Of a DNA stretch of 37,629 bases, positions 1 through 37,629 are shown piece after piece (within the stretch, counting starts at the first letter, position 1; every line of letters begins with the position of its first letter). The stretch comes from a virus: the IMG/VR virus record IMGVR_UViG_3300037473_000262; one strand, written 5' to 3'. The notes beneath the pieces were generated by a model, which worked only from the letters and a program-made list of their open reading frames with translations, did no database searches and had not been told where the DNA came from. Made by a program: the position numbers and the translations under genes.

Positions 1-127
1 TGTGACGCGAGACCACTCTGCAAGGCCTGCAGATACAGCGGATTCTGCTGCGTGAGCGCGCCCTGCGTGCCGAGTTCCTGCGCCAGCAACTGCTGCCACG
101 ATTGATCGGCCGTGACGAGTCCGGTCG
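1..127. repeat. Terminal direct repeat; nt 1-127 are identical to nt 37503-37629 (closure overlap of a circular or circularly permuted genome)
   Basis: Both ends read tgtgacgcgagaccactctgcaagg...cgtgacgagtccggtcg, 127/127 identical. The repeat lies inside an open reading frame. Confidence 0.95.
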
Positions 128-248
128 GGACATAGAAGTTACCACCCCCGCCACCACTGCCACCGCTTGTGCCAGGAGATAAGGCGCTGGACACCACGGC
201 GCCGCCGATGCCCGCAGCAAGACCGCCCGCGACTGCTCCGAATGGCAT
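1..248 (-). CDS. N-terminal part of a junction-spanning Gly/Gln-rich virion protein. The full gene is complement(join(36698..37629,128..248)), 350 aa.
   Basis: ATG at 248 follows GAAGGAGGG. Translation is MPFGAVAGGLAAGIGGAVVSSALSPGTSGGSGGGGGNFYVPTGLVTADQSWQQLLAQELGTQG and runs in frame into ORF 36698..37591 through the 127-nt overlap (1053 nt in total). The N-terminus has a glycine-zipper-like hydrophobic segment. Confidence 0.8.
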   Translation of the reverse strand, partial: MPFGAVAGGLAAGIGGAVVSSALSPGTSGGSGGGGGNFYVPTGLVTADQSWQQLLAQELGTQGALTQQNPLYLQALQSGLAS

Positions 249-251
249 GGC

Positions 252-596
252 CTAACCCTCCTTCAGTGTTTCGGGATCGGCGACGCTTTCGGCGTGGATG
301 CAAAGCCACGTCAGATCAGAAAGCGCCTGAATACGGTGCGCCTTGCCGGCCTTCACTTCCAGCATGCGCGGAGCCTCGAGAATGCTCAGCACGCCGTCGA
401 TCTCGATCATCGCTGTGCCGCGCGCGAGATAGCTAAGATGGTCGTACTCGTGCACATGCTTCTGCACCTCCTCGCCGGCGCGAAGCGTCTGCTCGCGCGC
501 GTACACACCGCCCGCGAAGTGGTGCTTTATATCCATCGCGGGGACCGCGCCCATGACGGCCGGAAGGGCGTGCATCATCGCTCGCACCTCAAACAT
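252..596 (-). CDS. Cupin-fold protein (small beta-barrel with a metal-binding-type motif)
   Basis: ORF track, 114 aa. KHVHEYDHLSYLARG and VKAGKAHRIQA resemble cupin motifs 1 and 2. An alternative start at 578 gives an ATGA overlap with the upstream stop and lies behind GAGG. Confidence 0.65.
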   Translation of the reverse strand: MFEVRAMMHALPAVMGAVPAMDIKHHFAGGVYAREQTLRAGEEVQKHVHEYDHLSYLARGTAMIEIDGVLSILEAPRMLEVKAGKAHRIQALSDLTWLCIHAESVADPETLKEG

Positions 597-1138
597 ACGA
601 TCAGCGTTATGCGGTCATCCTGACCGTCGTTGATCACCTCGTGCATCTTCGAGTTATCGAAGTACCAGACAGACCCCGGCTCCATGCAAACCCGCTCGTC
701 CTCGACGACGTTCACGCATTGCGGATTTGATTGGAGAACCACGTACAACTTCGTGTTGTAGTAGTCGGCATGCCACCCGCCGTCGACATGCGGTTCAATG
801 CGGCCACCGGGCGGAATACGCGTGATCAGGATGCCACCCAGCCGCGTTGCTTCGGTGCGAGCCATCATGGCGTACACAATCGGTCGTGCCTGCGGGAGCG
901 CGAACCACTCTGGATAGAAGATCGACTCGTGCTGGTCGTTAAACGTCGACCAGTCGCCAGATGCCTTGTGCGGCTTCTCATCGTTGTATCTCAGCCAGAT
1001 ATCGTCCATCTGCGAGTGCGGGCCGTCCGGAATCTCCTTCCGGTAACCATGACGATTCCACAGTCGCGGCTGGCGAGACAGAGCCAATAACAGTGGCGCT
1101 GTGTCCAGTCCGCGGGCGATCTGTACGAAATTCCTCAT
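575..1138 (-). CDS. Aspartyl/asparaginyl beta-hydroxylase-family (2OG/Fe(II) oxygenase-like) protein
   Basis: 187 aa. RIPPGGRIEPHVDGG ... WYFDNSKMHEVINDGQDDRITLIVCL matches the PG..I.PH.D / W.FD.S..HEV.N...R family pattern. Its start overlaps the holin stop. Confidence 0.7.
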   Translation of the reverse strand: MRNFVQIARGLDTAPLLLALSRQPRLWNRHGYRKEIPDGPHSQMDDIWLRYNDEKPHKASGDWSTFNDQHESIFYPEWFALPQARPIVYAMMARTEATRLGGILITRIPPGGRIEPHVDGGWHADYYNTKLYVVLQSNPQCVNVVEDERVCMEPGSVWYFDNSKMHEVINDGQDDRITLIVCLRCER

Positions 1139-1512
1139 GCCTTGCCCTTCACGCGCTCAGCCACATGCAACCCACCCAGGCCAAGCATGCCGAGCGTCAG
1201 CGTACCAAGTTCGCTCATGTCGAGAGGAGGCAGGCTCAACGGATGGCCGTAGATCGAAGCGCCAGCATTCAGCAACGGCTGCAACACGAAGTTCCACGCG
1301 TAACCCGCGACGCAAACCCAGCCCATGCCGCCGCGCCAGTGCTGCAGCGGGTCTGTGCTCTGGGCTTCGGCCTGGTTGATCGATAACTGCCCTTGCACCA
1401 TCGCAAGTACTGCGGAAAGTTGCTGCTGCTCCTGCACCGACTTGTCCGGCCAGATTTTGCTGACTATCGTCTGCGCCAGATCGAGTCCGGCGGTAATGGG
1501 ATCAAGTGCCAT
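1135..1512 (-). CDS. Holin, '3TM holin for gene-transfer release' type
   Basis: 125 aa. The N-terminal IVSKIWPDKSVQEQQQL...INQAEAQS...HWRGGMGWV pattern is followed by hydrophobic segments. The gene sits directly next to the endolysin. Confidence 0.7.
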   Translation of the reverse strand: MALDPITAGLDLAQTIVSKIWPDKSVQEQQQLSAVLAMVQGQLSINQAEAQSTDPLQHWRGGMGWVCVAGYAWNFVLQPLLNAGASIYGHPLSLPPLDMSELGTLTLGMLGLGGLHVAERVKGKA

Positions 1513-1933
1513 CGTTATCTCCCGTGAGCATCATTGTCGCCAGGCGTTGCGCGCGAGCGCCGACCTGTTTGGCCCACTTTGAATCGAGCATCTCGTCATG
1601 CGCAGCCTGCCAGTTACCTTGCCTGGCCGCGGCGAGAAACTGCGTGAATTCCAGCAGACCGCCGAGCATGTTGAACGCCATGTTGACGATCACGCGCTGC
1701 CGCACGGCGTCGAGGCCGCGCCACCACGGCAGATTGCGATCTAGCCACGCCGTCGTGCGCGCCACGTCGTTAGCCAGCAGCGCATCGCACTCGGCGTCGG
1801 AGATACCGACGTCCGTCAGGTTGCGACCGACGCCGATCGACGTCTTGCCGACAGAGTCGACGTACGGCTTCAGCTCACGACCCTCGTCGCGGCTCAGTTC
1901 GGCCACCATCGTCTGCATGTCGAACGAAGTCAC
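1502..1933 (-). CDS. Endolysin, glycoside hydrolase family 24 (T4-lysozyme-like)
   Basis: 143 aa. SRDEGRELKPYVDSVGKTSIGVGRNL carries the E-x8-D-x5-T catalytic spacing of T4-type lysozymes. Confidence 0.9.
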   Translation of the reverse strand: MTSFDMQTMVAELSRDEGRELKPYVDSVGKTSIGVGRNLTDVGISDAECDALLANDVARTTAWLDRNLPWWRGLDAVRQRVIVNMAFNMLGGLLEFTQFLAAARQGNWQAAHDEMLDSKWAKQVGARAQRLATMMLTGDNDGT

Positions 1934-2142
1934 AGCTTGCCCACCGCATGCATGATTTCGGTCACCTTGTCGGCGGTCGCCTTCGTGGTGTCCTCGATAA
2001 TCGTCGTGACCGACGCCTCGATCGCCGACAGGCTCTGCGCTTTGCCGTGCAGCTCGACCAGCGCCGCCAGTTTTTCCGGGATCGAGCGCGCGTCCGCGAT
2101 GATTGCGGAAAATTCGCTTTCAATCCCTGTCCAGATGCTCAT
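1930..2142 (-). CDS. Hypothetical protein (70 aa, helical, no TM segment) in the lysis cassette
   Basis: ORF track. AGGAGAG lies 4 nt upstream of the ATG at 2142. There is an ATGA-type overlap with the endolysin start. Confidence 0.7.
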   Translation of the reverse strand: MSIWTGIESEFSAIIADARSIPEKLAALVELHGKAQSLSAIEASVTTIIEDTTKATADKVTEIMHAVGKL

Positions 2143-2151
2143 GACTCTCTC

Positions 2152-2343
2152 CTAGAAAATCTTCTTGAGGCCGCCGCCGGCGCCGTAAGCGGCCACCGCG
2201 ATCAGGGCATAAATGAACACCCGCCAAACCACGCCGAGAACGCCCTTGCCAACGTTGAGTTGGAATTTTCGGAGCAGGGATCGCTCGAGTTGCTCGGTTA
2301 TGGCCTCTACGTCGGCATTCGACAAAGTGCGCTTATCGTCCAT
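2152..2343 (-). CDS. Small membrane protein (63 aa, one C-terminal TM segment); possible holin, antiholin or lysis accessory
   Basis: ORF track. The hydrophobic stretch is GVLGVVWRVFIYALIAVAAYGAGGG. This is the first gene of the lysis block. Confidence 0.6.
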   Translation of the reverse strand: MDDKRTLSNADVEAITEQLERSLLRKFQLNVGKGVLGVVWRVFIYALIAVAAYGAGGGLKKIF

Positions 2344-2372
2344 TTATTTCCCCGGTTGATGAATCGTTCGCT

Positions 2373-2831
2373 CTAGTTCGAAGGCAGCACGGTGAAGTTG
2401 TCGGTCTGGCCTGCGCGAAACAGAAAGGGCACTGTGGTGCTTGAGGCCCATGAAGTCGGGCCGCCTGACTGTGGCAGCACAATGCTTGCGCCGGTTGTGT
2501 TGTTCCGAAGCAGGATGTTTCCGCTCCAGTTCGGCGCGACCGAAAAAGACAATCCGGTCTGTGGAATCGTCACGTTCTGGCCGGCGCTTAACAGCGCGCC
2601 GCCGAACCACGGCGCGCCGCTAAAACTGATCGACTGCCCGCCACCGCCGCTCGAGCAGAACAGCGCGCCGTCGAAGCGCCCGGTCTTGCCTCGCAGGCTG
2701 CCGAAGTTGCACGACGCGCCAGTGACCTGCGCGAGCGCGCGCACCCACGGATGCTGCAGGTCGAGCGGCAGCGTCAGGCCGATCTCAGTCGCGACCTGCG
2801 ACATGGCAACAGCACCAGCGGATAGAGTCAT
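2373..2831 (-). CDS. Hypothetical protein downstream of the tail fibre (152 aa, Gly/Ser-rich beta-type composition)
   Basis: The start was moved to the ATG at 2831, which lies behind GGAGGCGAA and forms an ATGA overlap with the stop of 2828..3475. The track's longer N-terminus is Arg/Ala-rich. Confidence 0.65.
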   Translation of the reverse strand: MTLSAGAVAMSQVATEIGLTLPLDLQHPWVRALAQVTGASCNFGSLRGKTGRFDGALFCSSGGGGQSISFSGAPWFGGALLSAGQNVTIPQTGLSFSVAPNWSGNILLRNNTTGASIVLPQSGGPTSWASSTTVPFLFRAGQTDNFTVLPSN

Positions 2832-3475
2832 TTCGCCTCCAGCAGCGCGCGCAGCCGCATCACTTCCTCGGCCAGTTCGGCGCATGCAACAAGCGCAGCC
2901 TGGCCATACGCGACCGCGAGGCGCTCGTCGCCCCGCACAGCTTCTGGCATGAATGCCTGTAGCGATTGCGCACCAACACCTACCTGCCGCTTCCCGGTCT
3001 CGGTGTTGGTGAACGTGCCGCGCTTGAGCGCTGCCAGCCGTTTCAGGAAATCAGGCGCCAGAGGTTGCCAGTCGGTCTTCATGCGCTCATCCGATGCAGA
3101 CGTGATGTCGCCGAACGCCCACAGGTTTCCCGAGTCGTCGAGCGTCATCAACTGCTGGGTGAAGGCGTCGTTGACGATGTTGAAGATGCCGCCGATCACG
3201 CGCAGCGTCTTCGACGGCGTCGTAGCGCCGTTGCCGAGAAGCACCACCTGCGCGCCGTTTGTGCCGTCGCCTGATCCGTCCACCTTCAGCATCGCAGGGG
3301 TCGTCGGCGTGGATACCACGGTGATCGTCCCCGTCGAGGTGAACCCGTCGGGCTCGACAGGCATGGCGTTGGCGTTGACCTGATTCGCGATGAAATTCAG
3401 GTCCGCCATCACCTGCGATGCGTCTGCGGTGGTGCCGTTCTGAAGGTTGTCAGGTAGCGATCCGACGATGGACAT
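2828..3475 (-). CDS. Short tail fibre with a C-terminal peptidase-S74 intramolecular chaperone domain
   Basis: 215 aa. SASDERMKTDWQPL...VGVGAQSLQAFMPEAV...LAVAYGQ...LEAK matches the SDxRxK autoproteolytic chaperone signature. A GNGATTPSKTLRV..G.F.I.ND...D.GNL module is shared with 9882..11264. Confidence 0.8.
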   Translation of the reverse strand: MSIVGSLPDNLQNGTTADASQVMADLNFIANQVNANAMPVEPDGFTSTGTITVVSTPTTPAMLKVDGSGDGTNGAQVVLLGNGATTPSKTLRVIGGIFNIVNDAFTQQLMTLDDSGNLWAFGDITSASDERMKTDWQPLAPDFLKRLAALKRGTFTNTETGKRQVGVGAQSLQAFMPEAVRGDERLAVAYGQAALVACAELAEEVMRLRALLEAK

Positions 3476-6834: not shown

Positions 6835-8253
6835 TTACGGGGTCGTGATAGTGCCGCCCTGATAGCCCGGGCTGAATGCAGAACCGGTTTCGACGCGGGC
6901 AAGGAAGGCGGTGTTGAGAAGAATCGAGCCGTAGAAGACTTTCCACGACACGACGCGTGTCTGGTTCAGCGGATCCGACTTGTCGGCGCCGGTCAGATAG
7001 TGGAACTCGGGATTTTCGAGCAGCACCTGGCCGTAGCTATGGTTGCCGATGAAAATCGTCGGGAACACCGACACGCCGTTCGCGGGCGCAGCGGGCGGCG
7101 TCTGCGTCACACCTACGCCAGTGAGCGTCACAGTCTGACCCGGCTGCAGTTGCGTTGCCTGACCAGCCAGCACGCCCGTCACTGGCACGCCATTGCCGAT
7201 CGCTGTCGCAAGGTTCGACGGGTTGCTCGTCGAGCCGATGTACACGTTGAACACGTAGTTCGGGAACGCTGGCAGCGTGACCGCGATTGAACCGGTCGGG
7301 CCCGTCACGGCAACCTGTGCCGACACCTGGTAGATCGTCTGCTCGACCGACGTGAGCGCGGGCGCCGCGGTGACCTGAATGAAGTAATTGCCCGTCGGGA
7401 GTTGCCCGCCCGACGCCGATGCCGTGCCGTTGATCTGCGGACCGCCGGTCCAGTACGGCATCATGTTGGTTTCGCAGAAGCGAATACCGCCGAAGTCGCC
7501 CAGCTCGTTGTTATAGAGCCGGTTCACGTCGCTGAATGCCCATGCCTGCTGGACCGATGCGTTTTCGCGCATGTCCTGCGTCGGGAACGGGCTGATCAGC
7601 GCCACATAGTGCTGTTTCACACTCGGTGTTCGCGACGGATCGCGATATGCGCCCGCCTCGATCATCATGTCCTCGCGCTCGTCGCCGTTGAAGCGCGGAA
7701 CACCGTATGCGGCCATCGACGCGAACAGGCGGTTGCACTCGTGCGGCGACAGAACGTCGCCAGCCGTCAGCGCGGCGCGGTTCGCCTTGCCGCCGCCGTA
7801 GTTCACCTGCGGCGCGGACAGCAGAGTGTTCAGCGTGTTGCGCTCGAGCGTTTCCGGCATCTGCAGCGACACCAGTTCGCACGCTTGCTGGAAGAGCGGG
7901 TGCTTGATCGTCAGGTTCGCGACGTCGGTGATGATGACGCGGTCGCCCCACTGCTGCGCGGTTGCACTGACCTGTTGCAGCGTCATTGCCTCGCCCGGGG
8001 GCGCCACGCCTTCCTGCAGCGGCGCATATGGCAGCGGCAGGCGCTGGTAGCGCGACGCTGTGTACGTCGTGCCGCGGTTCGTGTCGAGCTTCAACGGCTT
8101 GCCGAACTGATACGCGACCAGTTGTCGGCGCGCGAGCGGCTCAACCTCTTCCTGAATGTAGGCTTCGACATCGGCCGTAAAGCTGGTCGACTGGTTCGTC
8201 ACCCCGGGAAACAGCAGACCCAGCAAGAGGGTCAAGTGGTTCAGTACGATCAT
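6835..8253 (-). CDS. Major capsid protein, N4-gp56 family, with an inserted domain and an N-terminal leader
   Basis: TYTASRYQRLPLPYAPLQEGVAPPGEAMTLQQVSATAQQWGDRVIITDV fits the family pattern (rfrRY..lpl...PL.EGv.P.g......v.a...qyG....itD). The start was set at the ATG at 8253 behind AGGGAG. The N-terminus reads MIVLNHLTLLLGLLFPGV. Confidence 0.8.
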   Translation of the reverse strand: MIVLNHLTLLLGLLFPGVTNQSTSFTADVEAYIQEEVEPLARRQLVAYQFGKPLKLDTNRGTTYTASRYQRLPLPYAPLQEGVAPPGEAMTLQQVSATAQQWGDRVIITDVANLTIKHPLFQQACELVSLQMPETLERNTLNTLLSAPQVNYGGGKANRAALTAGDVLSPHECNRLFASMAAYGVPRFNGDEREDMMIEAGAYRDPSRTPSVKQHYVALISPFPTQDMRENASVQQAWAFSDVNRLYNNELGDFGGIRFCETNMMPYWTGGPQINGTASASGGQLPTGNYFIQVTAAPALTSVEQTIYQVSAQVAVTGPTGSIAVTLPAFPNYVFNVYIGSTSNPSNLATAIGNGVPVTGVLAGQATQLQPGQTVTLTGVGVTQTPPAAPANGVSVFPTIFIGNHSYGQVLLENPEFHYLTGADKSDPLNQTRVVSWKVFYGSILLNTAFLARVETGSAFSPGYQGGTITTP

Positions 8254-8282
8254 GATTGCTCCCTGGTCTTCCCTTTTTCTGG

Positions 8283-9053
8283 TCAAATATTCTGGTTTTC
8301 CAGTCGCGCGATGCGCTTCTGGTGTTCAGTCGTCCCACGTCCGCTTGATACGTTCGAGCGCACGGCCGGCGTGCGACCACGCGGCACATCAGCTGCCGGC
8401 GCTTTGGCTTTGGCTTTAGGCTTCAACTTGCCTTCTGCGATGTCCTTGCCGAGCATGTGGAAGTAGATCGCCTCGCGAGACGCATTGCGACCTTGCCGGC
8501 GCTCTTCGGCAAGTGCATGCTCTACCCGGTCGCGATAGCGTGCTCGATGCGGGTCCGCCGCAATCTTCGATTCAAACGATGTGCGATCGTTGAGGTCTTC
8601 CGCTCGCATCAAAGCCTGATGAGCAAGACGCTGGTTATCGCGCAGCACGCGGTTCGAATGGATCTGCCAGCGCTCCTGCTCGGTAATGTCCGTCGCACGG
8701 AGACGCTCTTCTTCGCGCTGGAATTCCGGATCGACAAAAGGCGCAGCGGTCGGAGCACGGCCTGCGTCCACCGCCCGACCGCGACGCTCGACCTCTTCTT
8801 CCAGCCGGCGCAGGCGTTCCGCTGCATCGTTGGGATCAGGTGCGGAGGCGCGTCTCGGTGTCGGTTCGACGAAATCGAAATCGAACTCATCGTCGAGCGG
8901 ATCAGCGCCACCAGCGGGATCGCCGCGCCCCGGATCCCCGGCGGGGTCGCCGCCACCAGCGGGGTCTTCGGCTGGATCACCACCGGGATCGGCGGCCGGA
9001 TCGTCGACGCCCGGGAACAGCAAACCGAGAAGACTCTTAAGAAGTTTGCTCAT
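8283..9053 (-). CDS. Scaffolding-like protein (256 aa)
   Basis: The gene lies immediately upstream of the capsid gene. It has an acidic (G)DPAG repeat tract, a charged helical body and a basic C-terminus. The N-terminus reads MSKLLKSLLGLLFPGV. Confidence 0.6.
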   Translation of the reverse strand: MSKLLKSLLGLLFPGVDDPAADPGGDPAEDPAGGGDPAGDPGRGDPAGGADPLDDEFDFDFVEPTPRRASAPDPNDAAERLRRLEEEVERRGRAVDAGRAPTAAPFVDPEFQREEERLRATDITEQERWQIHSNRVLRDNQRLAHQALMRAEDLNDRTSFESKIAADPHRARYRDRVEHALAEERRQGRNASREAIYFHMLGKDIAEGKLKPKAKAKAPAADVPRGRTPAVRSNVSSGRGTTEHQKRIARLENQNI

Positions 9054-9062
9054 CTCGTGCCT

Positions 9063-9581
9063 TTATGATTGCGTGCCGGTGCCGACCGCCTGAATCGTCG
9101 CAGTCGTCGGGCTGGTGATGGTGATGATGAAATCGCGCCAGGTGTTCTGCGCGATGCTCATGGTTCCACCGAGCGTCCAACCGGTATTCGTCGTCAAGGT
9201 CCAGGCAAAAGCGCCGCTCGAGCTGTTGATCGCGCGCAACTGGAAGCTGAGACCCACCGGGCTTTGCTGCACGTTCGACGGCAGCGCCGCGAGCAGTTGA
9301 GCAACCGTCGGCAGTTGAGCGTTCGCAGCAGCGCCAAGCGCACCGGTGAGATTGAGGAAATTCTGTGCGGCGCCGGCGATTTGCGAGCCGGCGAGAGTGA
9401 AGCCGGCGGTGTTCGCCGCCACGTTGTAGCCCGTTTCCTGAAACGGATTCATGCCGAGGATGGCGTTCACCAGGCCGATCTGATCGGGCATCGCGCCGTT
9501 ATCGGGGATGTTCGGGGTATTGCCGGCGCCGATCGCCGGAAAGATGAGCCCAATCAACCGGGCGAGAAACGTTTTGCGCAC
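9063..9581 (-). CDS. Head-module structural protein (172 aa) carrying the shared N-terminal leader
   Basis: GTG at 9581 lies 5 nt after AGGAGA. The product starts (M)RKTFLARLIGLIFPAIGAG. The track's ATG at 9635 has no such RBS. Confidence 0.65.
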   Translation of the reverse strand: MRKTFLARLIGLIFPAIGAGNTPNIPDNGAMPDQIGLVNAILGMNPFQETGYNVAANTAGFTLAGSQIAGAAQNFLNLTGALGAAANAQLPTVAQLLAALPSNVQQSPVGLSFQLRAINSSSGAFAWTLTTNTGWTLGGTMSIAQNTWRDFIITITSPTTATIQAVGTGTQS

Positions 9582-9641
9582 GATGTTCTCCTGAACAGGT
9601 TGCGCAATTTGTACAGATATTTCCCGGAGGTCCAAAGCGCG

Positions 9642-9872
9642 TTAAACGCCGCGCATCAGGTATAGCGTAATCTGCACCGTGCTGTAATCGACATTTGCGA
9701 TCTGCTCGATCTGGTCATCCGCAGACGCGAACGCCTCGAACAACGATTGAAAATTCTTGCTGGCAAACACCACGTCACCAGCCTTCACGCCGGGCACCGA
9801 CACGGGCCCATACGCCGCACCGCCGGTGAACGTCGCCCGAATGATGGTTGGGTTAACCGTATCGACTGACAT
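9642..9872 (-). CDS. Hypothetical small head-module protein (76 aa)
   Basis: ORF track. AGGAGA lies upstream of the ATG at 9872. Confidence 0.7.
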   Translation of the reverse strand: MSVDTVNPTIIRATFTGGAAYGPVSVPGVKAGDVVFASKNFQSLFEAFASADDQIEQIANVDYSTVQITLYLMRGV

Positions 9873-9881
9873 GGCTATCTC

Positions 9882-11264
9882 CTATCGCATCCGCCGCCAG
9901 CGAAGCGTCCCGGTAACGGCTGAGGTGCCGCCGCTGTAGGTTGTCTGGCAGACGAGAAAAATCTGCGTCGCCACGGCGAGCTTGAATATCTGTCGCGGCG
10001 CGGGCATATCCTGATTGCCAGCGGTCATCGCCCATTGCCATTGATATGCAGTCCCGATGCCCGACACTGTTGCGGAGGTGGTACTGAGGCCTGCGATGAT
10101 GCTGCTCACTGAGGTCGTGCCCGAATATGTGAAGTGAACATCGCCCCATACCTCCCAGTCGCCAGGCTGCAAGGTCTGGCTTGCGGCATTGGTGATAGCC
10201 AAACTTGCGGCAGATGTGGGGCCGGTCTGAACCGTTCCTGACTCGCCTACACTTCCCGCGTTTGCGTTATTGTTGGTGTTCGTGCCGATGATGCCGCCGG
10301 TCTGCGACGGCTGGATAGAGCCGAGCACAGACAGGTTTCCGGCGTCGGTCAGCGCGAGCGCGAGCGCAGAGTTCGCATCGTTCGCGATCCCGAAGGTGCC
10401 GTTCACCACGCGCAGGTATTTCGTCGGCGTCGTCGAGCCGTTGCCGGTCATGTGGATGTTGGCGCCCTGCGACCCGGTGTTCGTCACCTGCAGCGTATTC
10501 AGGCCGTTCGAGGGCTCCGTTGCGCTGAGCGTGGTGAATGCGCCTGCCGCGGGTGTTCCGCTCCCGATTGCCGGCGGGTTGAGGAACCGGTCCTGCACGA
10601 AGAAGGTGGTCGCGAGCGCGTTGCTGCTGTCCGTGCGCGATGGGCTCGCAGCAGCAACAGCCGTCGTGAGCGTCGGAGATGTGCCGAATACCAGGCTTCC
10701 TGAGCCGGTTTCGTCGGAAATGACGCCAGCCAGCTGCGCAGACGTTGTCGAAGCGAACTGCGCGAGCGTTCCGGATGTCGACGCCAGGCTCAATGCCGAA
10801 GCGCTTTGGAAAGCGGGATCGGCGCCAGTACCCGTGGACGAGAAAATGGTACCTGCCGCACCCGGAGCGGCGAATCCGACGCCGGCCGTACCTTCGCCAA
10901 TCAACACGTTGTGCGCGCTCAGCGCGTTTTGACCGGTGCCCCCGCTCGCGACACCGATTGCAGAGGAAGTCGACAGCGATACGCCGGAAATCGTGCCGCC
11001 GGTAATGCTCACGGCGTTCGCGTTCTGATTGGCCATCGTGCCGGCCGCGGCGCCGTTCACTTTCGACACGACAGGATTCGGATACGTGCCACTCAGGTCG
11101 CCACCCGCTGGCCCCGTGGGGGGCTCAGGCTCACCAACCAGCGCATTGAGCGCAAGGGTCATCTGACGTGCAAGTGCGTTTAGCGCAGCCTGGATCTGTT
11201 CGGGCGGAACATCCTTCCCTTCCGCCCGAACGATCGGTGCCTGAATCAGAAACTGGTCAGCCAT
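9882..11264 (-). CDS. Fibre-like protein (460 aa) located between the portal/protease genes and the head genes
   Basis: The start was set at MADQFLIQ (11264), overlapping the upstream stop. GDLSGTYPNPVV and ISDETGSGSLVFGTSPTLTT are motifs typical of phage tail fibres. It shares the GNGSTTPTKYLRV..G.F.I.ND...D.GNL module with 2828..3475. Confidence 0.7.
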   Translation of the reverse strand: MADQFLIQAPIVRAEGKDVPPEQIQAALNALARQMTLALNALVGEPEPPTGPAGGDLSGTYPNPVVSKVNGAAAGTMANQNANAVSITGGTISGVSLSTSSAIGVASGGTGQNALSAHNVLIGEGTAGVGFAAPGAAGTIFSSTGTGADPAFQSASALSLASTSGTLAQFASTTSAQLAGVISDETGSGSLVFGTSPTLTTAVAAASPSRTDSSNALATTFFVQDRFLNPPAIGSGTPAAGAFTTLSATEPSNGLNTLQVTNTGSQGANIHMTGNGSTTPTKYLRVVNGTFGIANDANSALALALTDAGNLSVLGSIQPSQTGGIIGTNTNNNANAGSVGESGTVQTGPTSAASLAITNAASQTLQPGDWEVWGDVHFTYSGTTSVSSIIAGLSTTSATVSGIGTAYQWQWAMTAGNQDMPAPRQIFKLAVATQIFLVCQTTYSGGTSAVTGTLRWRRMR

Positions 11265-11601
11265 CGAGAGCCCCCACTCGATCGAATGTCGAGGGATGAA
11301 GCGGCCCGCTGCCATGCGGGAAGCGCGTTAGGAATGAGCGCAGGCCACGCGCTTCGCCGCGCTCTTTCACGTATCGATCCGCGGCGAATTCCTGCTCGTG
11401 GCATCGCGCGAATACCCACTGTGGCCGGAAAACGATTTGCAGCGTCATCACCCACCAGAGCCGACGCAACGCGTCGTGCTTTACGATGTGAGCACGCTCG
11501 TGCAACAACACCGCGGACTTCTCTGCCTGCGTCAACCGTTCGAAGAAGTCGCCGGTCTGGATCGTTCCCCACGGCGTACACCGCGCAACAAATGGTTTCA
11601 T
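11257..11601 (-). CDS. Small HExxH zinc-metallopeptidase-like protein (M48/M56-type motif), 114 aa
   Basis: LLHERAHIVKHDALRRLW is followed by HEQEFAADRYV. There is an ATGA overlap with the portal stop, and the 3-prime end overlaps the next start. Confidence 0.6.
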   Translation of the reverse strand: MKPFVARCTPWGTIQTGDFFERLTQAEKSAVLLHERAHIVKHDALRRLWWVMTLQIVFRPQWVFARCHEQEFAADRYVKERGEARGLRSFLTRFPHGSGPLHPSTFDRVGALDG

Positions 11602-13787
11602 CGCGGCCCCGCAGTCGGAGATGCCATCTGGTCAGGATGAATCGCGCCGGGCGGCTGCTGCGGGCGCGGGGGAGCCGGCTGGGCACCGGGTCGTGGCGTA
11701 CCGGGCACGCCAGGGCCCACCCCGCCGGGCACGCCTGGTTGACCTGGCTGTTTCTGTGGACCCATCTGCTGTTGCAACTTCGCCTGCATCGCGGCGACGT
11801 GTTGCTGCACGTGCGCGCGGAACAGGCCCGACGGATCGCCCGTCAGTTGCGCCGCCTGCAGGTGCGACTGAATGTGTCGACGATCATCGTCAGCCTGATG
11901 GATCTCGGCCTGCAGACCGTTGTGCATCATCAGGTTCTCGTCTTCCGGATCGATGTGGAACATGTTGCGTTCGTCGATCAGGATGCGCGGCGCGACTTCG
12001 GGTCCGAATATCTGCTCGGTGCCGTACTCGAGGATCGGGCCGATGTTCAGACGGCGGCCGTCGAGCTGCTGCGGCGGGATACCACGCAGCACGTTCATCC
12101 ACGAAATCATCTGCTGCATGCGCTGCAGGTTCTGCTGGTACGACGTGCCGCACCACCGGAAGAAATACCGCTCACCGAATGCCTGCGGCGGGATGACCTG
12201 AAGGTTTGCGCGCGCGCCAACTTCGCCGAGCACCTCGACCGTCAACTCTTCCGTGCGGAACTGCCGGTCCAGTTCGAACATCCACTCGAGCAGCGGATTT
12301 AATATCACCTCTTCGTAACGCTTGGCGTTGTCGATGATGTTCGATTCCTGAGCTGCAGACATTGCGGCAATCTGCTGAGCACCCTTTCGACCAGCGGGCA
12401 TCTTGCCGAGCATGGCGTCGTTGACGTCCATCGACTCGTTGATCTGCTGCTTGAGGTTCTCGCACAGAGGGATCGCGTCTTTGTAGAGCGCCGGGAAGTT
12501 GACGAACTTCGTCTTGTTCGGATCCGTCAGCCACACCGCAGCGAGACCCACCACCATTGACTGATAGCTCGGGTTCGACAGAGGGTCGACCATCGTGATC
12601 GGCAGCAGGCTGTACTGCGCCGAGTCCTGCCCCATGTTCCAGAAGTCGTTCAGGTTCCACTGCAGGAACTTGACGGGTTCGATCTTCGACACGCCGAAGA
12701 AAGATCCCTGGATTCGCTCGATTGGTGCCGACAGGATTGGTCGTTTTCCAGACCAAAATGGGTTGCGGATAATGCCAAGAATTTCGTCCTGGCCTGCGAA
12801 ATAGACGTAGCAGGGTTCTTTGCCGTTACCGAGGTCGAGATTGGTGTGGCATTCATAAATCAGCGCGTACTTGAAGGTGCCTTCAGTGCGGATACCGGCG
12901 TCGCCGGTGCGCTTCTTCGGCGGCACGTATTTTTCGCGGCCGCCGTCCGGTTTCGCGAGGTTCTCGACAAGTTCTTTCGCCGAGTGCCCGAGAAAAATGC
13001 CTTCGTCGATGAATTGCTGGACTGCATCCTTGTCGAGCCGGAGACGGATGCACGATGCAGTCGCCTTCTCTATGTCGTTGCAGGTCGGCGGATAGACTGC
13101 GAGGTCTTCGGTCGCGAAAGGTACGATGTCCGGCCCTTCGGTCGTGACCTCTTTCGTCTCCGTTTCCCACGTCCAGTCGTCGTCTTCCGCGGCAACATCC
13201 TGAACCTCGACGCCAAGCTCGGCGTTTTCCAGAACCGGCGGCTTCCTGATCAACTCGCGGACACGGCGCTGCGTCTTCGACCAGTCGATATACAGGTTCC
13301 ACTGGCCGGTGACGTCTCCCGCAATCAGGTCGGTGCGCACCGCATCCTTGACGTTGGCCGAGCGGATGTAATGCTCCAGCAGACTTACCTGCGCGAACGG
13401 AATGTTGCCGTCAGGACCAGTGGCACCAACATGCTTGTGATTGACGGGAAAGAGCTGCGCCAGCGTGCGCTTCATGCGCGCGTTCACCGCGTTGCGTACG
13501 GCCGGGATGTAGCACTGGCTATTGCCGGAGTACTGCTGGTTTTCGTCCGGCTGAGCGTTGTAGATGGACCAGTACTCCATGATCCGGTCCATCTGCTCCT
13601 GCTTGTTCTGGTAGCACTTGGCGAGCTTGGGGTATAGCCCCGCCGCGTCTATGTAGGCATCGGAATCGGGCTGGTCAGCCCAGTTTTCTAGCGGTTCGCC
13701 TGACTTCTCAGCGTCGATTGCCCGCGAGTCAATTTTCTCGACCGCGGGCTTGTCGTCCTGCTTTTTCTCACTTTTTCGGCGGGCCAT
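11598..13787 (-). CDS. Portal protein (729 aa) with a Pro/Gly/Gln-rich C-terminal tail
   Basis: The call rests on size, on position just downstream of the large terminase, and on the conserved-looking N-terminal YSGNSQCYIPAVRNAVNARMKRTLAQLFP region. The low-complexity C-terminus reads QKQPGQPGVPGGVGPGVPGTPRPGAQPAPPRPQQPPG. Confidence 0.75.
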   Translation of the reverse strand: MARRKSEKKQDDKPAVEKIDSRAIDAEKSGEPLENWADQPDSDAYIDAAGLYPKLAKCYQNKQEQMDRIMEYWSIYNAQPDENQQYSGNSQCYIPAVRNAVNARMKRTLAQLFPVNHKHVGATGPDGNIPFAQVSLLEHYIRSANVKDAVRTDLIAGDVTGQWNLYIDWSKTQRRVRELIRKPPVLENAELGVEVQDVAAEDDDWTWETETKEVTTEGPDIVPFATEDLAVYPPTCNDIEKATASCIRLRLDKDAVQQFIDEGIFLGHSAKELVENLAKPDGGREKYVPPKKRTGDAGIRTEGTFKYALIYECHTNLDLGNGKEPCYVYFAGQDEILGIIRNPFWSGKRPILSAPIERIQGSFFGVSKIEPVKFLQWNLNDFWNMGQDSAQYSLLPITMVDPLSNPSYQSMVVGLAAVWLTDPNKTKFVNFPALYKDAIPLCENLKQQINESMDVNDAMLGKMPAGRKGAQQIAAMSAAQESNIIDNAKRYEEVILNPLLEWMFELDRQFRTEELTVEVLGEVGARANLQVIPPQAFGERYFFRWCGTSYQQNLQRMQQMISWMNVLRGIPPQQLDGRRLNIGPILEYGTEQIFGPEVAPRILIDERNMFHIDPEDENLMMHNGLQAEIHQADDDRRHIQSHLQAAQLTGDPSGLFRAHVQQHVAAMQAKLQQQMGPQKQPGQPGVPGGVGPGVPGTPRPGAQPAPPRPQQPPGAIHPDQMASPTAGPR

Positions 13788-27448: not shown

Positions 27449-27783
27449 CCGACAACCTGTCTATCGTCGGCGGTCGCGCGATGACCATCCGGGAGGTCGC
27501 CAGGATCCTGCGCGTGTCGTACGGAACGGTCTACGCGCACCGCGCCGAGATGGGTTTCTTCCAGATCGGCGCGGCGTGGCGGGTCTTCCCTCAGAAGCTC
27601 CAGGAATTTCTGGACGGTTATAATCAGCCCCGGCCGGCGCGGACGGATAAGGAAACTGTATGTCAATCCGAAAACGTGGAGACGTGTATCACGTTGACAT
27701 CCGCAAACCAGACGGCGGTCGAATTAGATGCTCTGCTGGGACCGACGACCGCAAGAAGGCGCAGGAGTATCACGACAAGTTGA
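27445..27783 (+). CDS. xis: Excisionase-family HTH protein (HTH_17/AlpA-like)
   Basis: MTIREVARILRVSYGTVYAHRAEMGFFQIGAAWRV is the HTH segment. The gene sits directly upstream of int, with an ATGA overlap to the upstream gene. Its 3-prime end overlaps int by 124 nt. Confidence 0.65.
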   Translation: MTDNLSIVGGRAMTIREVARILRVSYGTVYAHRAEMGFFQIGAAWRVFPQKLQEFLDGYNQPRPARTDKETVCQSENVETCITLTSANQTAVELDALLGPTTARRRRSITTS

Positions 27784-28715
27784 AGCATGAGCTGTGGCGC
27801 GTGTCGAAGCTTGGCGAAAAGCCGTCGCGTTCGTTCGACGACGCGGCGCTGAGGTTCCTGAAGGAACAGTCGAACAAGGCGGACTTCGACAGCAAGAAGC
27901 GGCACCTGAAGCACTTTCGGTCGGTCTTCGCAGGTCGGGAGTTGGGCTCGCTCAAGCGGGACGAGATTTACGACGCACTGCCCGACGTCGACCTGCGAGT
28001 GAAGACCGAAGACAGGCCAGTCGCCAATGCGACGAAGAACCGGTACCTCGCCACCATCCGGGCAATGCTGAATGATGCGGCGCACGATTGGGAGTGGATC
28101 GACAAGGCACCGAAGCTGCCTGATCTGGAGGAAGGAAGCAGCCGTATCCGGTGGATCACGCGCGACGAGGCGCAGCGTCTGCTGGGCACTATCCGGACGG
28201 AGTGGATGCGCGACGCGACGATCTTCGGGTTTGCGACGGGGCTCCGGCAGGCGAATATCCTCGGTCTCGAATGGTCGCAGGTTGACCTCGTGCGCAAGCG
28301 CGCATGGGTGCATCCGGACCAGGCAAAGGCGAGAAAGCCTATCGGCGTGCCGCTGAACGCGGAAGCGGTCGAAGTGATCCGGCGGCAGATCGGCAAGCAC
28401 CAGACGCACGTGTTTGTCAGGAACGGGAAGGTTCTGGAGTATTGGGACGCAGTGCAGTGGCGCCTGGCATGTGGGCGGGCCGGAATCGAGAACTTCACGT
28501 TTCACGATGTCCGGCACACCTGGGCCAGTTGGCATGTTCAGAACGGTACGCCTCTGAACCGGCTAATGGAGCTTGGCGGCTGGTCGACGTACGAGATGGT
28601 TTTGCGTTACGCGCATCTCGCACCTGATCATCTGGCACAGCACGCCGACGCGGTCACAATCTGGGCACACAATACGTCGGAGAATGTGGGCACAGGTAAC
28701 AAAAAAGCCGGCTAG
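27660..28715 (+). CDS. int: Tyrosine integrase
   Basis: 351 aa. ATGLRQANILGLEW (Arg), FHDVRHTWASWHV (HxxR) and LGGWSTYEMVLRYAHL (catalytic Tyr) are present. The gene is adjacent to the tRNA fragment. Confidence 0.92.
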   Translation: MSIRKRGDVYHVDIRKPDGGRIRCSAGTDDRKKAQEYHDKLKHELWRVSKLGEKPSRSFDDAALRFLKEQSNKADFDSKKRHLKHFRSVFAGRELGSLKRDEIYDALPDVDLRVKTEDRPVANATKNRYLATIRAMLNDAAHDWEWIDKAPKLPDLEEGSSRIRWITRDEAQRLLGTIRTEWMRDATIFGFATGLRQANILGLEWSQVDLVRKRAWVHPDQAKARKPIGVPLNAEAVEVIRRQIGKHQTHVFVRNGKVLEYWDAVQWRLACGRAGIENFTFHDVRHTWASWHVQNGTPLNRLMELGGWSTYEMVLRYAHLAPDHLAQHADAVTIWAHNTSENVGTGNKKAG

Positions 28716-31486: not shown

Positions 31487-32830
31487 TCAGTAACTGAGAC
31501 CTTTCGCGTAGCCCATGCGCTGGAGGTCAGGCAACTGCTTTTTCAGCCGGCCGACGCCGATGTCGGTGCGGTAGAACGGGCTGTTCGGGATTTTGACTTT
31601 TTTGATCGCGCTGTAGGCGGATCGTCGCGCACCGGTGATCGTGTCCCCGGTACCGGTCGCGATCATCACGTAGTCGCCGGCAGTGACCGGGCCTGGCAGG
31701 TCCACGACCTTGCCGTTCACCTCACGTGGCGCAACTCCCATCATGACCTCGGAAAAGTGCAGGTGGTCCATATCTTCGGCGCCGTAGATCGGAATTCCGC
31801 ACAGTTCCTTGTTCGTGATCTTCGAATACGGAAAGTCCGGCAGGGCCATCAGCACAGACACGCATACCTCATCCATCCGGAGCTTTATCGTGTCTTTCCC
31901 GTTGATCTTGTCGACCATCCACTGCGCCGGGTCGCCTTCGATCAGAGCGGTCAGGTTGTGGCGGATCGGCCAGCCGTCGCGCATCGTCCACTCGAGGGGA
32001 AACGGGCCCTTGCCGTCCGTGGGGATCATGCAGTTCACGTCGACGTAGCCGACATAGCCAATGCGGTGCAGGTGGTCCGTCGCGGGCTTCAGCACCTCGT
32101 CGGCCAGCTTCGACTGGCGAACGACGCGCACGGTAGTGCCCATCTCGCCGGTGTTCACGCCGAGATCGCCGTTCATCAGCTTCTTGTTTTCCCAGTTCTC
32201 GACCCAGCCCTTCGACCAGCCATCGGGGCCGAAGAAGCCGCCAACGGCCATTTCGATACCGTCGATCTTCTCCTGCAGGATGAAGCCGTCTTCGCGTGCG
32301 GCGGCGCGGTATCTGTCGATCTTCTTCCAGCGGCCGAGCATGTACACCATGTCGGCCGCATTGTTGGCTACGTACGACATGGCGCGCTCGCCATCGCCGG
32401 ATGGTTTGGAAACGAACGGTTTGGCGTTTTTTTTCACGTACGCTATTGCTGAATCGTAGTCGTGAAAAGTCTTGCCCGGAATGATGCGCATGCCGCACTC
32501 TTCCATGACCTTCTGACCGACGCCGCGGTCCAGTTCCCACTCGACGGCCGCCAGATTGCACCCGTAGATCGGGTAGCCGATCTTCCGGAAGGGCTCAAGC
32601 ATCTCGAGGTACGAGACGTTATCCGGTGTATAGATGAGGTCCGCCCAGCCGAGCCACTTGCGACGCAGCTCGTCATAGTCGCGGATCTTCGGCACGAACC
32701 CCTCGCCGGCATGACGGTCCGTTCCGTCGGGACGGGGCTTGTCGTACCATAGGACCTGATGCCCCCAGTCCTGGCAACGCATCAGCCAGTCGAGGCAGTT
32801 CGATCCGACGTCGATTGCTAGAATTCTCAT
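31487..32830 (-). CDS. PurD-like (phosphoribosylamine-glycine ligase family) ATP-grasp enzyme, 447 aa
   Basis: It is collinear with PurD as I recall the family: KPFVSKPSGDGERAMSYV (compare IVIKADGLAAGKGV), LQEKIDGIEMAV (compare EEFL.GeE.S), GDLGVNTGEMG (compare D.GPNTGGMG), PLEWTMRDGWP (compare IEFN.RFGDPE), and the C-terminal VTAGDYVMIATGTGDTITGARRSAYSAIKKVKIPNSPFYRTDIG. Confidence 0.8.
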   Translation of the reverse strand: MRILAIDVGSNCLDWLMRCQDWGHQVLWYDKPRPDGTDRHAGEGFVPKIRDYDELRRKWLGWADLIYTPDNVSYLEMLEPFRKIGYPIYGCNLAAVEWELDRGVGQKVMEECGMRIIPGKTFHDYDSAIAYVKKNAKPFVSKPSGDGERAMSYVANNAADMVYMLGRWKKIDRYRAAAREDGFILQEKIDGIEMAVGGFFGPDGWSKGWVENWENKKLMNGDLGVNTGEMGTTVRVVRQSKLADEVLKPATDHLHRIGYVGYVDVNCMIPTDGKGPFPLEWTMRDGWPIRHNLTALIEGDPAQWMVDKINGKDTIKLRMDEVCVSVLMALPDFPYSKITNKELCGIPIYGAEDMDHLHFSEVMMGVAPREVNGKVVDLPGPVTAGDYVMIATGTGDTITGARRSAYSAIKKVKIPNSPFYRTDIGVGRLKKQLPDLQRMGYAKGLSY

Positions 32831-32854: not shown

Positions 32855-33142
32855 ATGAAACGGCTTATTCCATTCGCTCTTTTATGCATAGCGGGTAGCG
32901 CCAATGCATGGGGACTCGCTGGATTGGGCTGGTATCAGACCTACCAGTACGGGGCCCCTCCGCCCGTTCAGGTACAGCAACCCAGCTACAGCGACAGCTA
33001 CAACCAGGGCTACATGGACGGCTTCAATGAAGCGCATGGCCTGATCGGACGCCATGGTTACGGCACGCACTACGACGAGGGGTATAAAGCGGCTCGTCAG
33101 TCGGTAGAGGCGACGTATCAACTCAACCGCCCGGCGTACTAG
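32855..33142 (+). CDS. Small secreted Tyr/Gly/Gln-rich protein (95 aa); opposite-strand moron candidate
   Basis: GGGAGA lies 5 nt upstream of the ATG. The signal peptide is MKRLIPFALLCIAGSANA followed by WG. This is the only plus-strand gene inside the late operon. Confidence 0.65.
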   Translation: MKRLIPFALLCIAGSANAWGLAGLGWYQTYQYGAPPPVQVQQPSYSDSYNQGYMDGFNEAHGLIGRHGYGTHYDEGYKAARQSVEATYQLNRPAY

Positions 33143-36688: not shown

Positions 36689-36697
36689 GTCGATACC

Positions 36698-37629
36698 TCA
36701 CTGCAACGTGAATCCGTACGAGTTCCCGCCGCCGCTGTAATAGGGACTCGAATTGAACGCGCCGCTGAAATCTCCGCCACTGAACGATCCGCTGGCGGGA
36801 TTGAAAAGGTTAGAAAACGCGTTTTGCACCTGGGTATTGTTTCCAATTCCCTGAATGGCGTTCGACACAAGACTTCCTGCCGCTCCTGCGCCAGCCGACT
36901 GTGCCTGGAACGGCACGGACTGTGCGCCATTGCCGTAGTTCAGATAGGGGATGATCTGGCTGTTGATCGCACTGGCCGAAGACAGCGGCCCCTGCTCGAG
37001 CTGCTGCTGATAGGTCGCAGCAAGTTGGCCCGGCGCTGCGGACAGCCCCATTGCGGTCTGGTATGGCAACTGGCCAGCTTCGTACGTAGCACCTGCACCT
37101 GCCTGCCCCAACGTCGCACCCTGTCCTGCCAACTGTCCTGCCTGTCCCGCAGCCTGACCGTAGCCCTGCAGCCCCTGCAGCGCGCGCGACAGCTGGTTGT
37201 TCTGCCAGTCGATGTTGAAGTTCGACAGCGCCTGGTTCTGCACACCGGCGCCGGCAGCCGACGAGCCGAGACCGTACATGGAGTTGGTCGCGCCGGTCTG
37301 CTGCGTGACCTGGTTTAGCGTGCGATCGTATAGCGCGCTTTGCGGGTCCAGGCCCATGTTGAAGACCTGTTGCCCAGCGTTCAGCAGACCCTGCTGCGCG
37401 CCGAAATCTAGGCCGGCAGCGCCCTGCAGTTGGGAACCCAGATTGGCATACTGGCCACTCGCCATGTTGGCGTACTGCTGCGCGCCGGCCCCGTACTGGT
37501 TTTGTGACGCGAGACCACTCTGCAAGGCCTGCAGATACAGCGGATTCTGCTGCGTGAGCGCGCCCTGCGTGCCGAGTTCCTGCGCCAGCAACTGCTGCCA
37601 CGATTGATCGGCCGTGACGAGTCCGGTCG
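36698..37629 (-). CDS. C-terminal part of the junction-spanning Gly/Gln/Asn/Ser/Tyr-rich virion protein (continues at 128..248)
   Basis: The reading frame is open to the window end and joins 1..248 in frame through the 127-nt overlap. Low-complexity Q/G/A/N composition runs throughout. Confidence 0.8.
   Translation of the reverse strand, partial: TGLVTADQSWQQLLAQELGTQGALTQQNPLYLQALQSGLASQNQYGAGAQQYANMASGQYANLGSQLQGAAGLDFGAQQGLLNAGQQVFNMGLDPQSALYDRTLNQVTQQTGATNSMYGLGSSAAGAGVQNQALSNFNIDWQNNQLSRALQGLQGYGQAAGQAGQLAGQGATLGQAGAGATYEAGQLPYQTAMGLSAAPGQLAATYQQQLEQGPLSSASAINSQIIPYLNYGNGAQSVPFQAQSAGAGAAGSLVSNAIQGIGNNTQVQNAFSNLFNPASGSFSGGDFSGAFNSSPYYSGGGNSYGFTLQ
37503..37629. repeat. Terminal direct repeat, the second copy of nt 1-127
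   Basis: 127/127 identity with the window start. Confidence 0.95.

Follow-up and report, generated by a model that had tools for sequence, protein, structure and literature searches.

Here we describe three consecutive virion genes whose products begin with one and the same short leader peptide, found in a 37,629-nucleotide stretch of viral DNA from a Burkholderia-type prophage (IMG/VR virus record IMGVR_UViG_3300037473_000262; this whole stretch is called the window below). Two genes away from them, directly after the portal gene, lies a gene for a 114-amino-acid (aa) protein with an HExxH motif, and it is this pairing of a leader shared by three neighbouring virion genes with a miniature zinc protease gene beside the portal that suggests maturation by a metalloprotease. 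The leader itself is real and well supported; the metalloprotease mechanism, as read from sequence, is plausible and unproven. We give about an even chance to a removable leader whose junction with the rest of the protein is read and cut by the phage's own mini-M48 protease.

The genes concerned all lie on the minus strand, in the order terminase, portal, HExxH gene, 477-aa gene, 76-aa gene, p172, scaffold-like gene and capsid gene. Those that carry the argument are listed here, with an apostrophe marking the junction at the end of each leader.

11598..13787, minus strand: portal protein, 729 aa (Pfam SU10_portal, E 8.6e-12, above the gathering score; PHROG 1216, portal).
11257..11601, minus strand: predicted minimal M48-type zinc metalloprotease, 114 aa, candidate leader peptidase (Pfam, motifs, AlphaFold2 (AF2) model, Foldseek).
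11488-11502, 11377-11391 and 11278-11298, minus strand: the HERAH, EFAAD and HPSTFDR motifs of that protein (sequence check).
Between the HExxH gene and p172, minus strand: a 477-aa fibre-like protein, then a 76-aa open reading frame (ORF), placed by gene order.
9063..9581, minus strand: p172, 172 aa with a GTG start, made of leader, flexible linker and beta-sandwich knob (AF2 model, homologues).
9534..9581, minus strand: p172 leader, V(M)RKTFLARLIGLIFPA'IGAGN, junction before I17 (GTG start, AGGAG upstream).
8283..9053, minus strand: scaffold-like protein, 256 aa (position directly upstream of the capsid gene; acidic, helical composition).
9009..9053, minus strand: scaffold-like leader, MSKLLKSLLGLLFPG'VDDPA, junction before V16 (motif scan, conserved in relatives).
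6835..8253, minus strand: major capsid protein, 472 aa from the ATG at 8253, N4-gp56 family (TIGR04387; PHROG 1357, E 1.1e-38).
8203..8253, minus strand: capsid leader, MIVLNHLTLLLGLLFPG'VTNQS, junction before V18 (ATG start, GGGAG upstream).

The initial annotation held that these three proteins begin alike, and six-frame translation bears this out: the pattern L-[LI]-G-L-[LI]-F-P-[GA]-[VI] occurs exactly three times, within residues 8-18 of p172, the scaffold-like protein and the capsid protein, and the regular expression [LIVM][LIVM]G[LIVM][LIVM]FP finds three sites only in all six frames (9537-9557, 9012-9032 and 8206-8226). It had also been claimed that no other ORF of the window carries the motif. 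Indeed, the three sites score 45, 45 and 43 in a six-frame BLOSUM62 scan with the 9-mer, and the fourth-ranked match reaches 27, in an ORF with only 24 codons left. Between the scaffold and capsid leaders 6 of 24 coding bases differ, every change being synonymous; since the copies differ at synonymous sites, conservation lies at the peptide level, as first proposed, and a DNA repeat or gene conversion is ruled out. The peptide KSLLGLLFPGVDDPA is one example of a putative cleavage-junction substrate. In the capsid, the match to NCBIfam TIGR04387 (N4-gp56; 126.7 bits, cut-off 60) begins at residue 41, downstream of the leader, again in keeping with the earlier description. The scaffold-like protein has no Pfam, PHROG or NCBIfam family match, and its assignment draws further on a synteny that is the same in all relatives. 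Straight after its leader, residues 16-58 (8880-9008, minus strand) form a low-complexity acidic D-P-x-G tract (VDDPAADPGGDPAEDPAGGGDPAGDPGRGDPAGGADP), poorly conserved in sequence, its composition being kept in relatives and in the sister clade introduced below.

All three leaders are conserved as peptides in 80 IMG/VR relatives, whose capsids are 77-93% identical. A wider search for capsid homologues returned more than 1,900 matches at E <= 0.001, and in all of the best 120 listed, which are 70-92% identical to the window protein, a hydrophobic N-terminal leader of 8-26 aa stands before a conserved junction (120/120). The leader is fast-evolving and the mature capsid nearly invariant, with entropies of 1.3-3.6 bits in leader columns against a mean of 0.31 over 40 positions from the DVEAYIQ core of the mature protein. 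The boundary between the two is sharp. Homology of the window capsid to leaderless capsids begins at residues 18-20, and the Met of distant leaderless homologues aligns with the junction, both in two Manatee Spring phages (MTISNSTIS.. and MNTTTFAK..; MW202637, MW202477) and in six proteobacterial genomes or metagenome-assembled genomes (MAGs) with capsids beginning MAVNSASAF.., MPTNVASQF.. and MASVNKSASF.. (L207-212; L numbers are our locus labels). More generally, leaderless capsid, fibre-like and ~120-aa orthologues start at the junction or within two residues of it. For example, the 215-aa fibre-like protein of the window is itself a leaderless orthologue, its residues 2-3 aligning with residues 12-16 of tagged ones, and p104 of L083 is a leaderless orthologue of tagged ~120-aa proteins such as p119 of L088. 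For p172, only the C-terminal domain aligns with outgroup proteins; other gene callers predict the same 172-aa product and include the leader. In four capsids (L049, L051, L052 and L055; IMG/VR 3300048916_000052 and relatives) the leader reads KLGLLWA-LTLQTIISFFVNYHKRDSGRTWTLMAYRQLPMY-LFPG'VTNQ, with ~27 residues apparently inserted inside it, or with a new internal start (MAYRQLPMYLFPG). The phage collection searched holds no cultured phage with a capsid more than 27% identical; Burkholderia phage CSP3 has an N4-gp56-type capsid, yet is no close relative.

Furthermore, each genome spells the leader in a dialect of its own. Scanning every locus with its own capsid leader 9-mer gave the forms LLFPG'V, LLLPG'V, FLTLG'V, FLxLP'V, LFPR/Q'V, LFRPG/A'V and FLPL'V/A, with the best matches at the beginning of the scaffold and p172-type proteins; divergent lineages have such matches in further genes too. 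Capsid and scaffold 9-mers from the same genome score a mean of 23.6 against 16.1 for permuted pairs (standard deviation (sd) 0.97, maximum 18.9, 200 permutations), and capsid and p172-window 9-mers 18.5 against 14.4 (sd 0.65). In a position-wise test, in which we located the scaffold site through its match with the capsid 9-mer, the same-genome excess in identity is confined to positions -6 to -1, with essentially none (at most 0.14) at -14 to -7 and +2 to +6, and position -2, a P or an L, is equal in capsid and scaffold in 36/36 genomes against 0.51 under permutation. A neighbour-joining tree of mature capsids nests dialect switches inside other dialects: L104 (FLFPR'V, YLFPQ'V, FVWPR'V) and L153-158 (LFRP[GA]) both fall inside LxLG clades, and the tagged proteins with a detectable match switched together, three out of three in L104 and two in L155 and L158. 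Since the tagged proteins of one genome co-vary at the junction, these alignments argue that one common partner reads the junction and evolves along with it.

The gene proposed here for that partner overlaps the portal gene by an ATGA, in which the portal stop codon meets the start of the 114-aa HExxH protein; the coupling to the portal, in the slot of a prohead protease, is as the initial annotation had it. Pfam places the product in Peptidase_M48 (PF01435, 23.5 bits, passing the gathering cut-off of 20.3), with M56 (PF05569) falling below its own (24.4 bits against 31) and no match in NCBIfam. Its HExxH is HERAH at residues 34-38, invariant in 21 close and 60 diverse homologues, followed by E71-F-A-A-D75 (an ExxAD whose Glu would be the third zinc ligand) and H102-P-S-T-F-D-R108 (HPxxxxR). 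An exhaustive search with the protease profile yielded 278 cluster representatives, nearly all of 105-177 aa, and across the 60 used for invariance (27-73% identity) the sole invariant residues are H34, E35, H38, E71, A74, D75, P103 and R108. All three motifs are carried by 155/170 family members; NCBI names homologues "M48 family metalloprotease", and the distant ones lie on contigs of ~1.3-1.4 kb only.

Structure prediction, recommended at the outset, points to the same family. The AF2 model (predicted local distance difference test score, pLDDT, 90.7) is a compact, soluble-looking domain, and its best 12 Foldseek matches are to ZMPSTE24/Ste24p (template modelling (TM) score 0.59-0.73, the top ones 0.72-0.73; probability 1.0; E-values 6e-3 to 0.1), followed by proabylysin (partial, TM 0.33) and BlaR1, with viral M48 peptidases also found; a sequence search of the Protein Data Bank (PDB) with the protease profile gave weak BlaR1 and HtpX matches only (E 0.08-0.15). 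By inspection, the sequence has no hydrophobic stretch of transmembrane length, and the two helices with the zinc ligands are separated by a stretch rich in Trp (residues 46-63). Taken with the motifs, the model makes the protein a minimal M48-type catalytic core, with predicted proteolytic activity. An ImmA/IrrE-type or SprT-type identity was also considered and is unsupported, Pfam and Foldseek both indicating M48/Ste24. The Pfam, PHROGs and NCBIfam scans covered 30 window ORFs (ten from the region of the finding in all three libraries, 17 more in Pfam, with overlapping sets in PHROGs). Among these 30 there is no second protease-like gene except the Peptidase_S74 chaperone domain of a fibre protein, which agrees with the earlier statement that the HExxH gene is the only one; many scanned ORFs have no match at all, so "only protease" means "only recognisable protease". 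Neither the HExxH protein nor any other scanned window ORF has homology in these libraries to the prohead protease families S77, S78, S49, S14, S73, S80 or C108, and no Prp/DUF464 (C108) gene was detected among them. Read as its longest ORF, the 477-aa fibre-like gene overlaps the 3' end of the HExxH gene by 59 nt (11257-11315, minus strand); an internal ATG (MADQFLIQ.., ~11264) would cut the overlap to 8 nt, and the start of the fibre-like gene is uncertain.

Whether leader and HExxH gene go together in relatives was a check named in the initial annotation, and for the capsid they do. Our ingroup test set comprised the 113 loci whose sequence extends at least 6.5 kb upstream of the capsid gene; an HExxH profile match on the same strand upstream of that gene is present in 110 of them, and the remaining three have a divergent small HExxH ORF right after the portal, so that leader and protease gene are both present in 113/113. 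In a sister clade, no HExxH gene was found at any of 80 loci (31 with at least 6.5 kb upstream), and 65/69 IMG/VR capsids are leaderless. The HExxH gene was likewise not found in the six outgroup genomes L207-212 or in phage records MW202637 and MW202477; in sister clade and outgroup the gene order is portal, scaffold, capsid, with nothing between. Capsid leader and protease gene thus occur together at the level of clades.

Two parts of the earlier description have to be given up. The leader had been taken as specific to head proteins; three proteins carry it in the window, and in some relatives five to seven per genome carry the local dialect, namely a ~120-aa protein, ~165-aa and ~265-287-aa knobs related to p172, the scaffold, the capsid and ~280-aa fibre-like proteins with a typical fibre N-terminus (..'VIVGPLPNNIVDGT..DA.PVMANF..). 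The same tag therefore marks tail-fibre-like and knob proteins as well. p172 had been called a head protein, and is rather a leader, a linker and a beta-sandwich: its AF2 model (pLDDT 85.9) has a helix at residues 3-13 and a beta domain at 48-169, with residues 14-26 lacking regular secondary structure and modelled at lower confidence (block means 60-68). Of its PDB matches one alone is significant, to gp52 of Pseudomonas phage Pa223, a spike on the outside of the capsid (E 3.3e-4, TM only 0.36), and we take this match as a lead, not an assignment; the match to PHROG 673 is weak. Going by the model, p172 may be a capsid spike or decoration protein. Its C-terminal beta-sandwich (residues ~70-172; 9063-9370, minus strand) recurs in many proteins of 136-295 aa (P0373-P0410) with unrelated, leaderless N-termini, and reads as a shuffled knob module.

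We propose that the N-terminal segments of 15-17 residues would serve as a leader, or tag, that can be taken off: each would be a short helix, amphipathic or hydrophobic, with a recognition element at its end (positions -6 to +1; here L-L-F-P-G'V). The tag would probably have arisen on the scaffold and then been copied to the capsid and other virion proteins in this clade. The phage's soluble 114-aa M48 protease would recognise the junction and remove the leader during particle assembly, leaving V/T-N-Q-S as the mature capsid N-terminus; it would have replaced the usual serine prohead protease non-orthologously and would be the functional counterpart of Prp, the host enzyme that trims the capsid and scaffold proteins of phage 80alpha. 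Here we infer cleavage itself, its exact site, the enzyme responsible and the leader's prior role. The extension of this proposal to the whole virion, by which three to seven structural proteins would be marked with the genome's own dialect and the co-evolving soluble M48 protease would remove the tag, we hold more tentatively, as a possibility with somewhat less than an even chance.

Several observations weigh against cleavage by this enzyme. Characterised M48 and M56 enzymes are membrane proteins, and soluble mini-versions have been crystallised as zymogens. The HExxH gene is parted from p172, scaffold and capsid by the 477-aa fibre-like and 76-aa genes, and its place beside the portal is not constant: it directly follows the portal in the window, L085 and L088, and comes after an 81-aa gene in L118 and after an 81-aa gene and a 306-aa collagen-like (G-x-y-rich) gene in L083.

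L083 2900-4450, L088 313-1610 and L118 948-1600: relatives' loci in which the variable position of the HExxH gene is seen.

No protease residue that tracks the P or L leader dialect was found, in an alignment too divergent to call. The tagged fibre-like and knob proteins of relatives are expected outside the particle, a poor fit to a protease of the prohead interior. The co-occurrence of protease and leader is a contrast between two sister clades, in essence a single evolutionary event. Finally, ~12 of 55 distinct sister-clade scaffold N-termini, and the MW202477 scaffold, are leader-like (..FAP'EN.G) without a protease gene. These leader-like N-termini precede the acidic tract (MFRQMLMAGASRAVFSP'ENDEG, MLKRHLLMTTAAFAP'PGEGNG ..), with which other sister-clade scaffolds begin directly.

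L207 6925-7737; L216 6364-7137; L213 4860-5621; L241 7170-7967; MW202477 (L200 807-91, minus strand): sister-clade scaffolds with the hydrophobic extension ..F/Y-A-P'E/P-x-[DE]-G, their capsids leaderless.

The sister-clade extension may be the evolutionary precursor of the leader. Since it stands there without a protease gene, the scaffold helix is probably older than the protease and may itself play a part in assembly; such a helix can exist, and presumably work, without the HExxH enzyme.

This leads to the most serious competing explanation, that the leader is a permanent, uncleaved docking or assembly helix. It would bind a common site on the capsid, on the scaffold core or on its fellow helices, dialects would co-evolve with that site, and the HExxH protease would serve elsewhere, for instance in degrading the scaffold in bulk or on a target outside morphogenesis. 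We consider this less likely than cleavage by the HExxH protein, though it accounts for much: leader-like scaffold N-termini occur in the protease-less sister clade, the tag is also on fibre and knob proteins, and a shared binding site predicts within-genome co-variation equally well. The 80alpha scaffold N-terminus is needed for assembly, its cleavage being dispensable (PMC5744158), and p172 resembles the Pa223 spike, which is anchored via its N-terminal 40 residues (bioRxiv 10.1101/2025.06.11.659172). However, what is conserved and co-varies is the run of six residues up to the junction rather than a helix face. The leader is also hypervariable in sequence and length (8-26 aa) beside a near-invariant mature N-terminus, which would be unusual for an element of a conserved lattice, and in three protein families the leaderless orthologues have their first residue exactly at the junction. 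Moreover, a protease that looks catalytically intact by sequence is universally kept in exactly the clade with the tagged capsid. Docking and removal need not exclude each other: the leader could first serve assembly and be removed later, by analogy with the capsid targeting sequence of T4.

Removal by a host protease in the manner of Prp, with the HExxH protein unrelated to the step, is improbable in our judgement. It has the precedent of 80alpha (PMC5744158, PMC9405229), and the sister-clade scaffolds with leader-like N-termini and no phage protease would suit it; yet dialects differ among close phages of similar hosts and co-vary per genome, which points to a phage-encoded co-evolving partner, the family spans Burkholderia, Paraburkholderia, a Rhodanobacter MAG and a betaproteobacterial MAG, and proteobacterial L27 has no Prp-type extension (PMC9405229). 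We see very little chance that the leaders are Sec-type signal peptides or membrane anchors directing the proteins to the inner membrane or periplasm, even though many capsid leaders of the wider family combine a basic N-terminus, a hydrophobic run and small residues after the junction (e.g., MKKLFSIILAFLSLG'VTNAA), and relatives in M48 and M56 work at membranes. The motif of most tagged proteins includes charged residues (LRKFLHLG, LRNFLQLP, KLLKSLLG) and is only ~8-10 residues long; by inspection, the leaders of scaffold, p172 and most relatives have K, R or H inside the hydrophobic stretch. The window capsid leader has no basic residue and a Gln would stand at -1 of a VTNQ'S site, and there is no lipobox cysteine. 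Tailed-phage heads, besides, are assembled and packaged in the cytoplasm. On composition and biology, a Sec signal peptide or lipoprotein signal was rejected. Least credible of all is an artefact of wrong starts or chance similarity, in which the true starts would be at the junction and the "leader" untranslated. The capsid junction codon is indeed GTG, but those of scaffold (GTC) and p172 (ATC) are not start codons, Shine-Dalgarno-like AGGAG (p172) and GGGAG (capsid) precede the upstream starts, conservation is at the amino-acid level with synonymous change across hundreds of genomes, and independent gene callers include the leader; on these codon, Shine-Dalgarno-like, conservation and gene-caller grounds mis-called start codons were rejected.

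Beyond the leader and its candidate protease, the window holds the following features of note.

16351-14132, minus strand: large terminase (PHROG 38).
2828..3475, minus strand: fibre-like protein, 215 aa, with a C-terminal S74 chaperone domain (Pfam Peptidase_S74).
27660-28715: integrase (library scan of window ORFs).
31487-32830 and 575-1138, minus strand: ATP-grasp and cupin genes, seen also in L083 (20799-end), L084 (14845-end) and L085 (16973-17536).

Downstream of the capsid gene the late genes comprise further virion genes, the S74 fibre, a lysozyme and a holin, and at the right end (33123-37591) large ORFs without annotation (297, 487 and 707 aa, minus strand) continue the late block that ends at 1-3475. 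Since this block runs across both contig ends, the contig is a circular permutation of the phage genome, which appears to be complete and that of a temperate phage. Within or beside the late genes for structure and lysis lie a GARS-like ATP-grasp enzyme (Pfam GARS_A/GARS_C) and a cupin of the Asp/Asn beta-hydroxylase type; both recur in relatives and, judging by their families, could modify virion proteins.

The family is abundant, with more than 1,900 capsid matches, and the leader runs through a large uncultivated clade of soil and Burkholderiales phages. Homologues were found in Burkholderia and Paraburkholderia genomes, and prophages in isolates of these genera make experiments feasible; carriers include Paraburkholderia tropica LMG 22274 (L201), Burkholderia semiarida CCRMBC74 (L203) and P. 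phenoliruptrix LMG 22037 (L205). To our knowledge, the characterised capsid-maturation proteases of tailed phages are all serine enzymes, or cysteine enzymes (Prp, Cp-1). If our proposal is true, a zinc metalloprotease would join these classes, as a further non-orthologous displacement in the portal-protease-scaffold-capsid cassette; in the virion-wide form of the proposal, no morphogenetic protease of tailed phages would before it have been a metalloprotease or have had substrates beyond the head interior. A naturally soluble 114-residue M48 core with defined peptide substrates would also offer a model for enzymes of the Ste24, HtpX and BlaR1 type, and the leader dialects a compact, swappable system of protease-substrate specificity. 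Should the leader stay uncleaved, a common docking helix on capsid, scaffold, spike and fibre would be a new assembly principle for this group.

Among known systems, the closest is phage 80alpha, whose capsid (gp47) and scaffold (gp46) have a common N-terminal leader cut by the host protease Prp (MEROPS C108), the leaders being 10-15 residues long with a hydrophobic or aromatic end before the cut (..KLNLQFF'A) (PMC5744158, PMC9405229). As in 80alpha, capsid and scaffold here share a short N-terminal motif at whose end leaderless homologues start; there, one small dedicated protease co-evolves with the site (PMC5744158, PMC9405229), a part for which the present family has a candidate. Prp, however, is a cysteine protease encoded by the host and acts mainly on ribosomal protein L27, whereas the candidate is encoded by the phage, has an unrelated fold and belongs to the zinc metalloproteases; the motif here is L-L-G-L-L-F-P-G'V rather than the L27-type MLxx(D/N)LQ(F/L)F'A, the hosts are Proteobacteria, and in relatives as many as seven virion proteins bear the tag, fibre-like ones included. 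T4 gp21 and its counterparts in phiKZ and SPN3US (gp175/gp245) offer a second likeness, several virion proteins sharing an N-terminal propeptide that one phage-encoded protease there removes (PMC9026906, PMC5694885). Those enzymes, however, are serine proteases of assemblin-like fold that cut L/I-x-E or S/A/G-x-E in head-internal substrates, so that fold, motif and part of the substrates differ here.

By position, the HExxH gene recalls HK97 gp4 (S78), lambda C (S49) and the ClpP-like S14 proteases, with which it shares the slot right after the portal, translational coupling and association with scaffold and capsid genes; it has no family relationship to them, is of metallo rather than serine type, and is followed by intervening fibre-like and 76-aa genes. 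By family, it shares HExxH, the ExxAD Glu ligand and HPxxxxR with M48 enzymes (Ste24/ZMPSTE24, HtpX, BepA), with M56 BlaR1 and with the minigluzincins proabylysin and projannalysin, whose size of ~105-115 aa it also matches; unlike the M48 and M56 enzymes it lacks transmembrane segments and TPR or sensor domains, and it sits in a phage head module. A small HExxH protein near head genes has been speculated to be a prohead protease once before, on genomic grounds, in Vibrio phage XM1, whose gp46 is a Spartan/SprT-like metalloprotease (PMC10457771); the present protein belongs to the M48 rather than the SprT/Spartan subfamily of zincins, and no shared leader is reported for XM1.

The initial annotation regarded the whole scheme as undescribed. 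This stands for the enzyme, in that the literature searched holds no description of this phage family and, bar the speculation on XM1 gp46, no metalloprotease prohead protease; it does not stand for the shared leader, for which 80alpha and Prp are a precedent. Already known are a leader common to capsid and scaffold with a small co-evolving protease (80alpha/Prp; PMC5744158, PMC9405229) and propeptides shared by many head proteins (T4, phiKZ-like; PMC9026906, PMC5694885). What would be new here is the M48 class and fold of the protease, its encoding by a phage in Proteobacteria, the genome-specific dialects of the leader and the presence of the tag on fibre and knob proteins.

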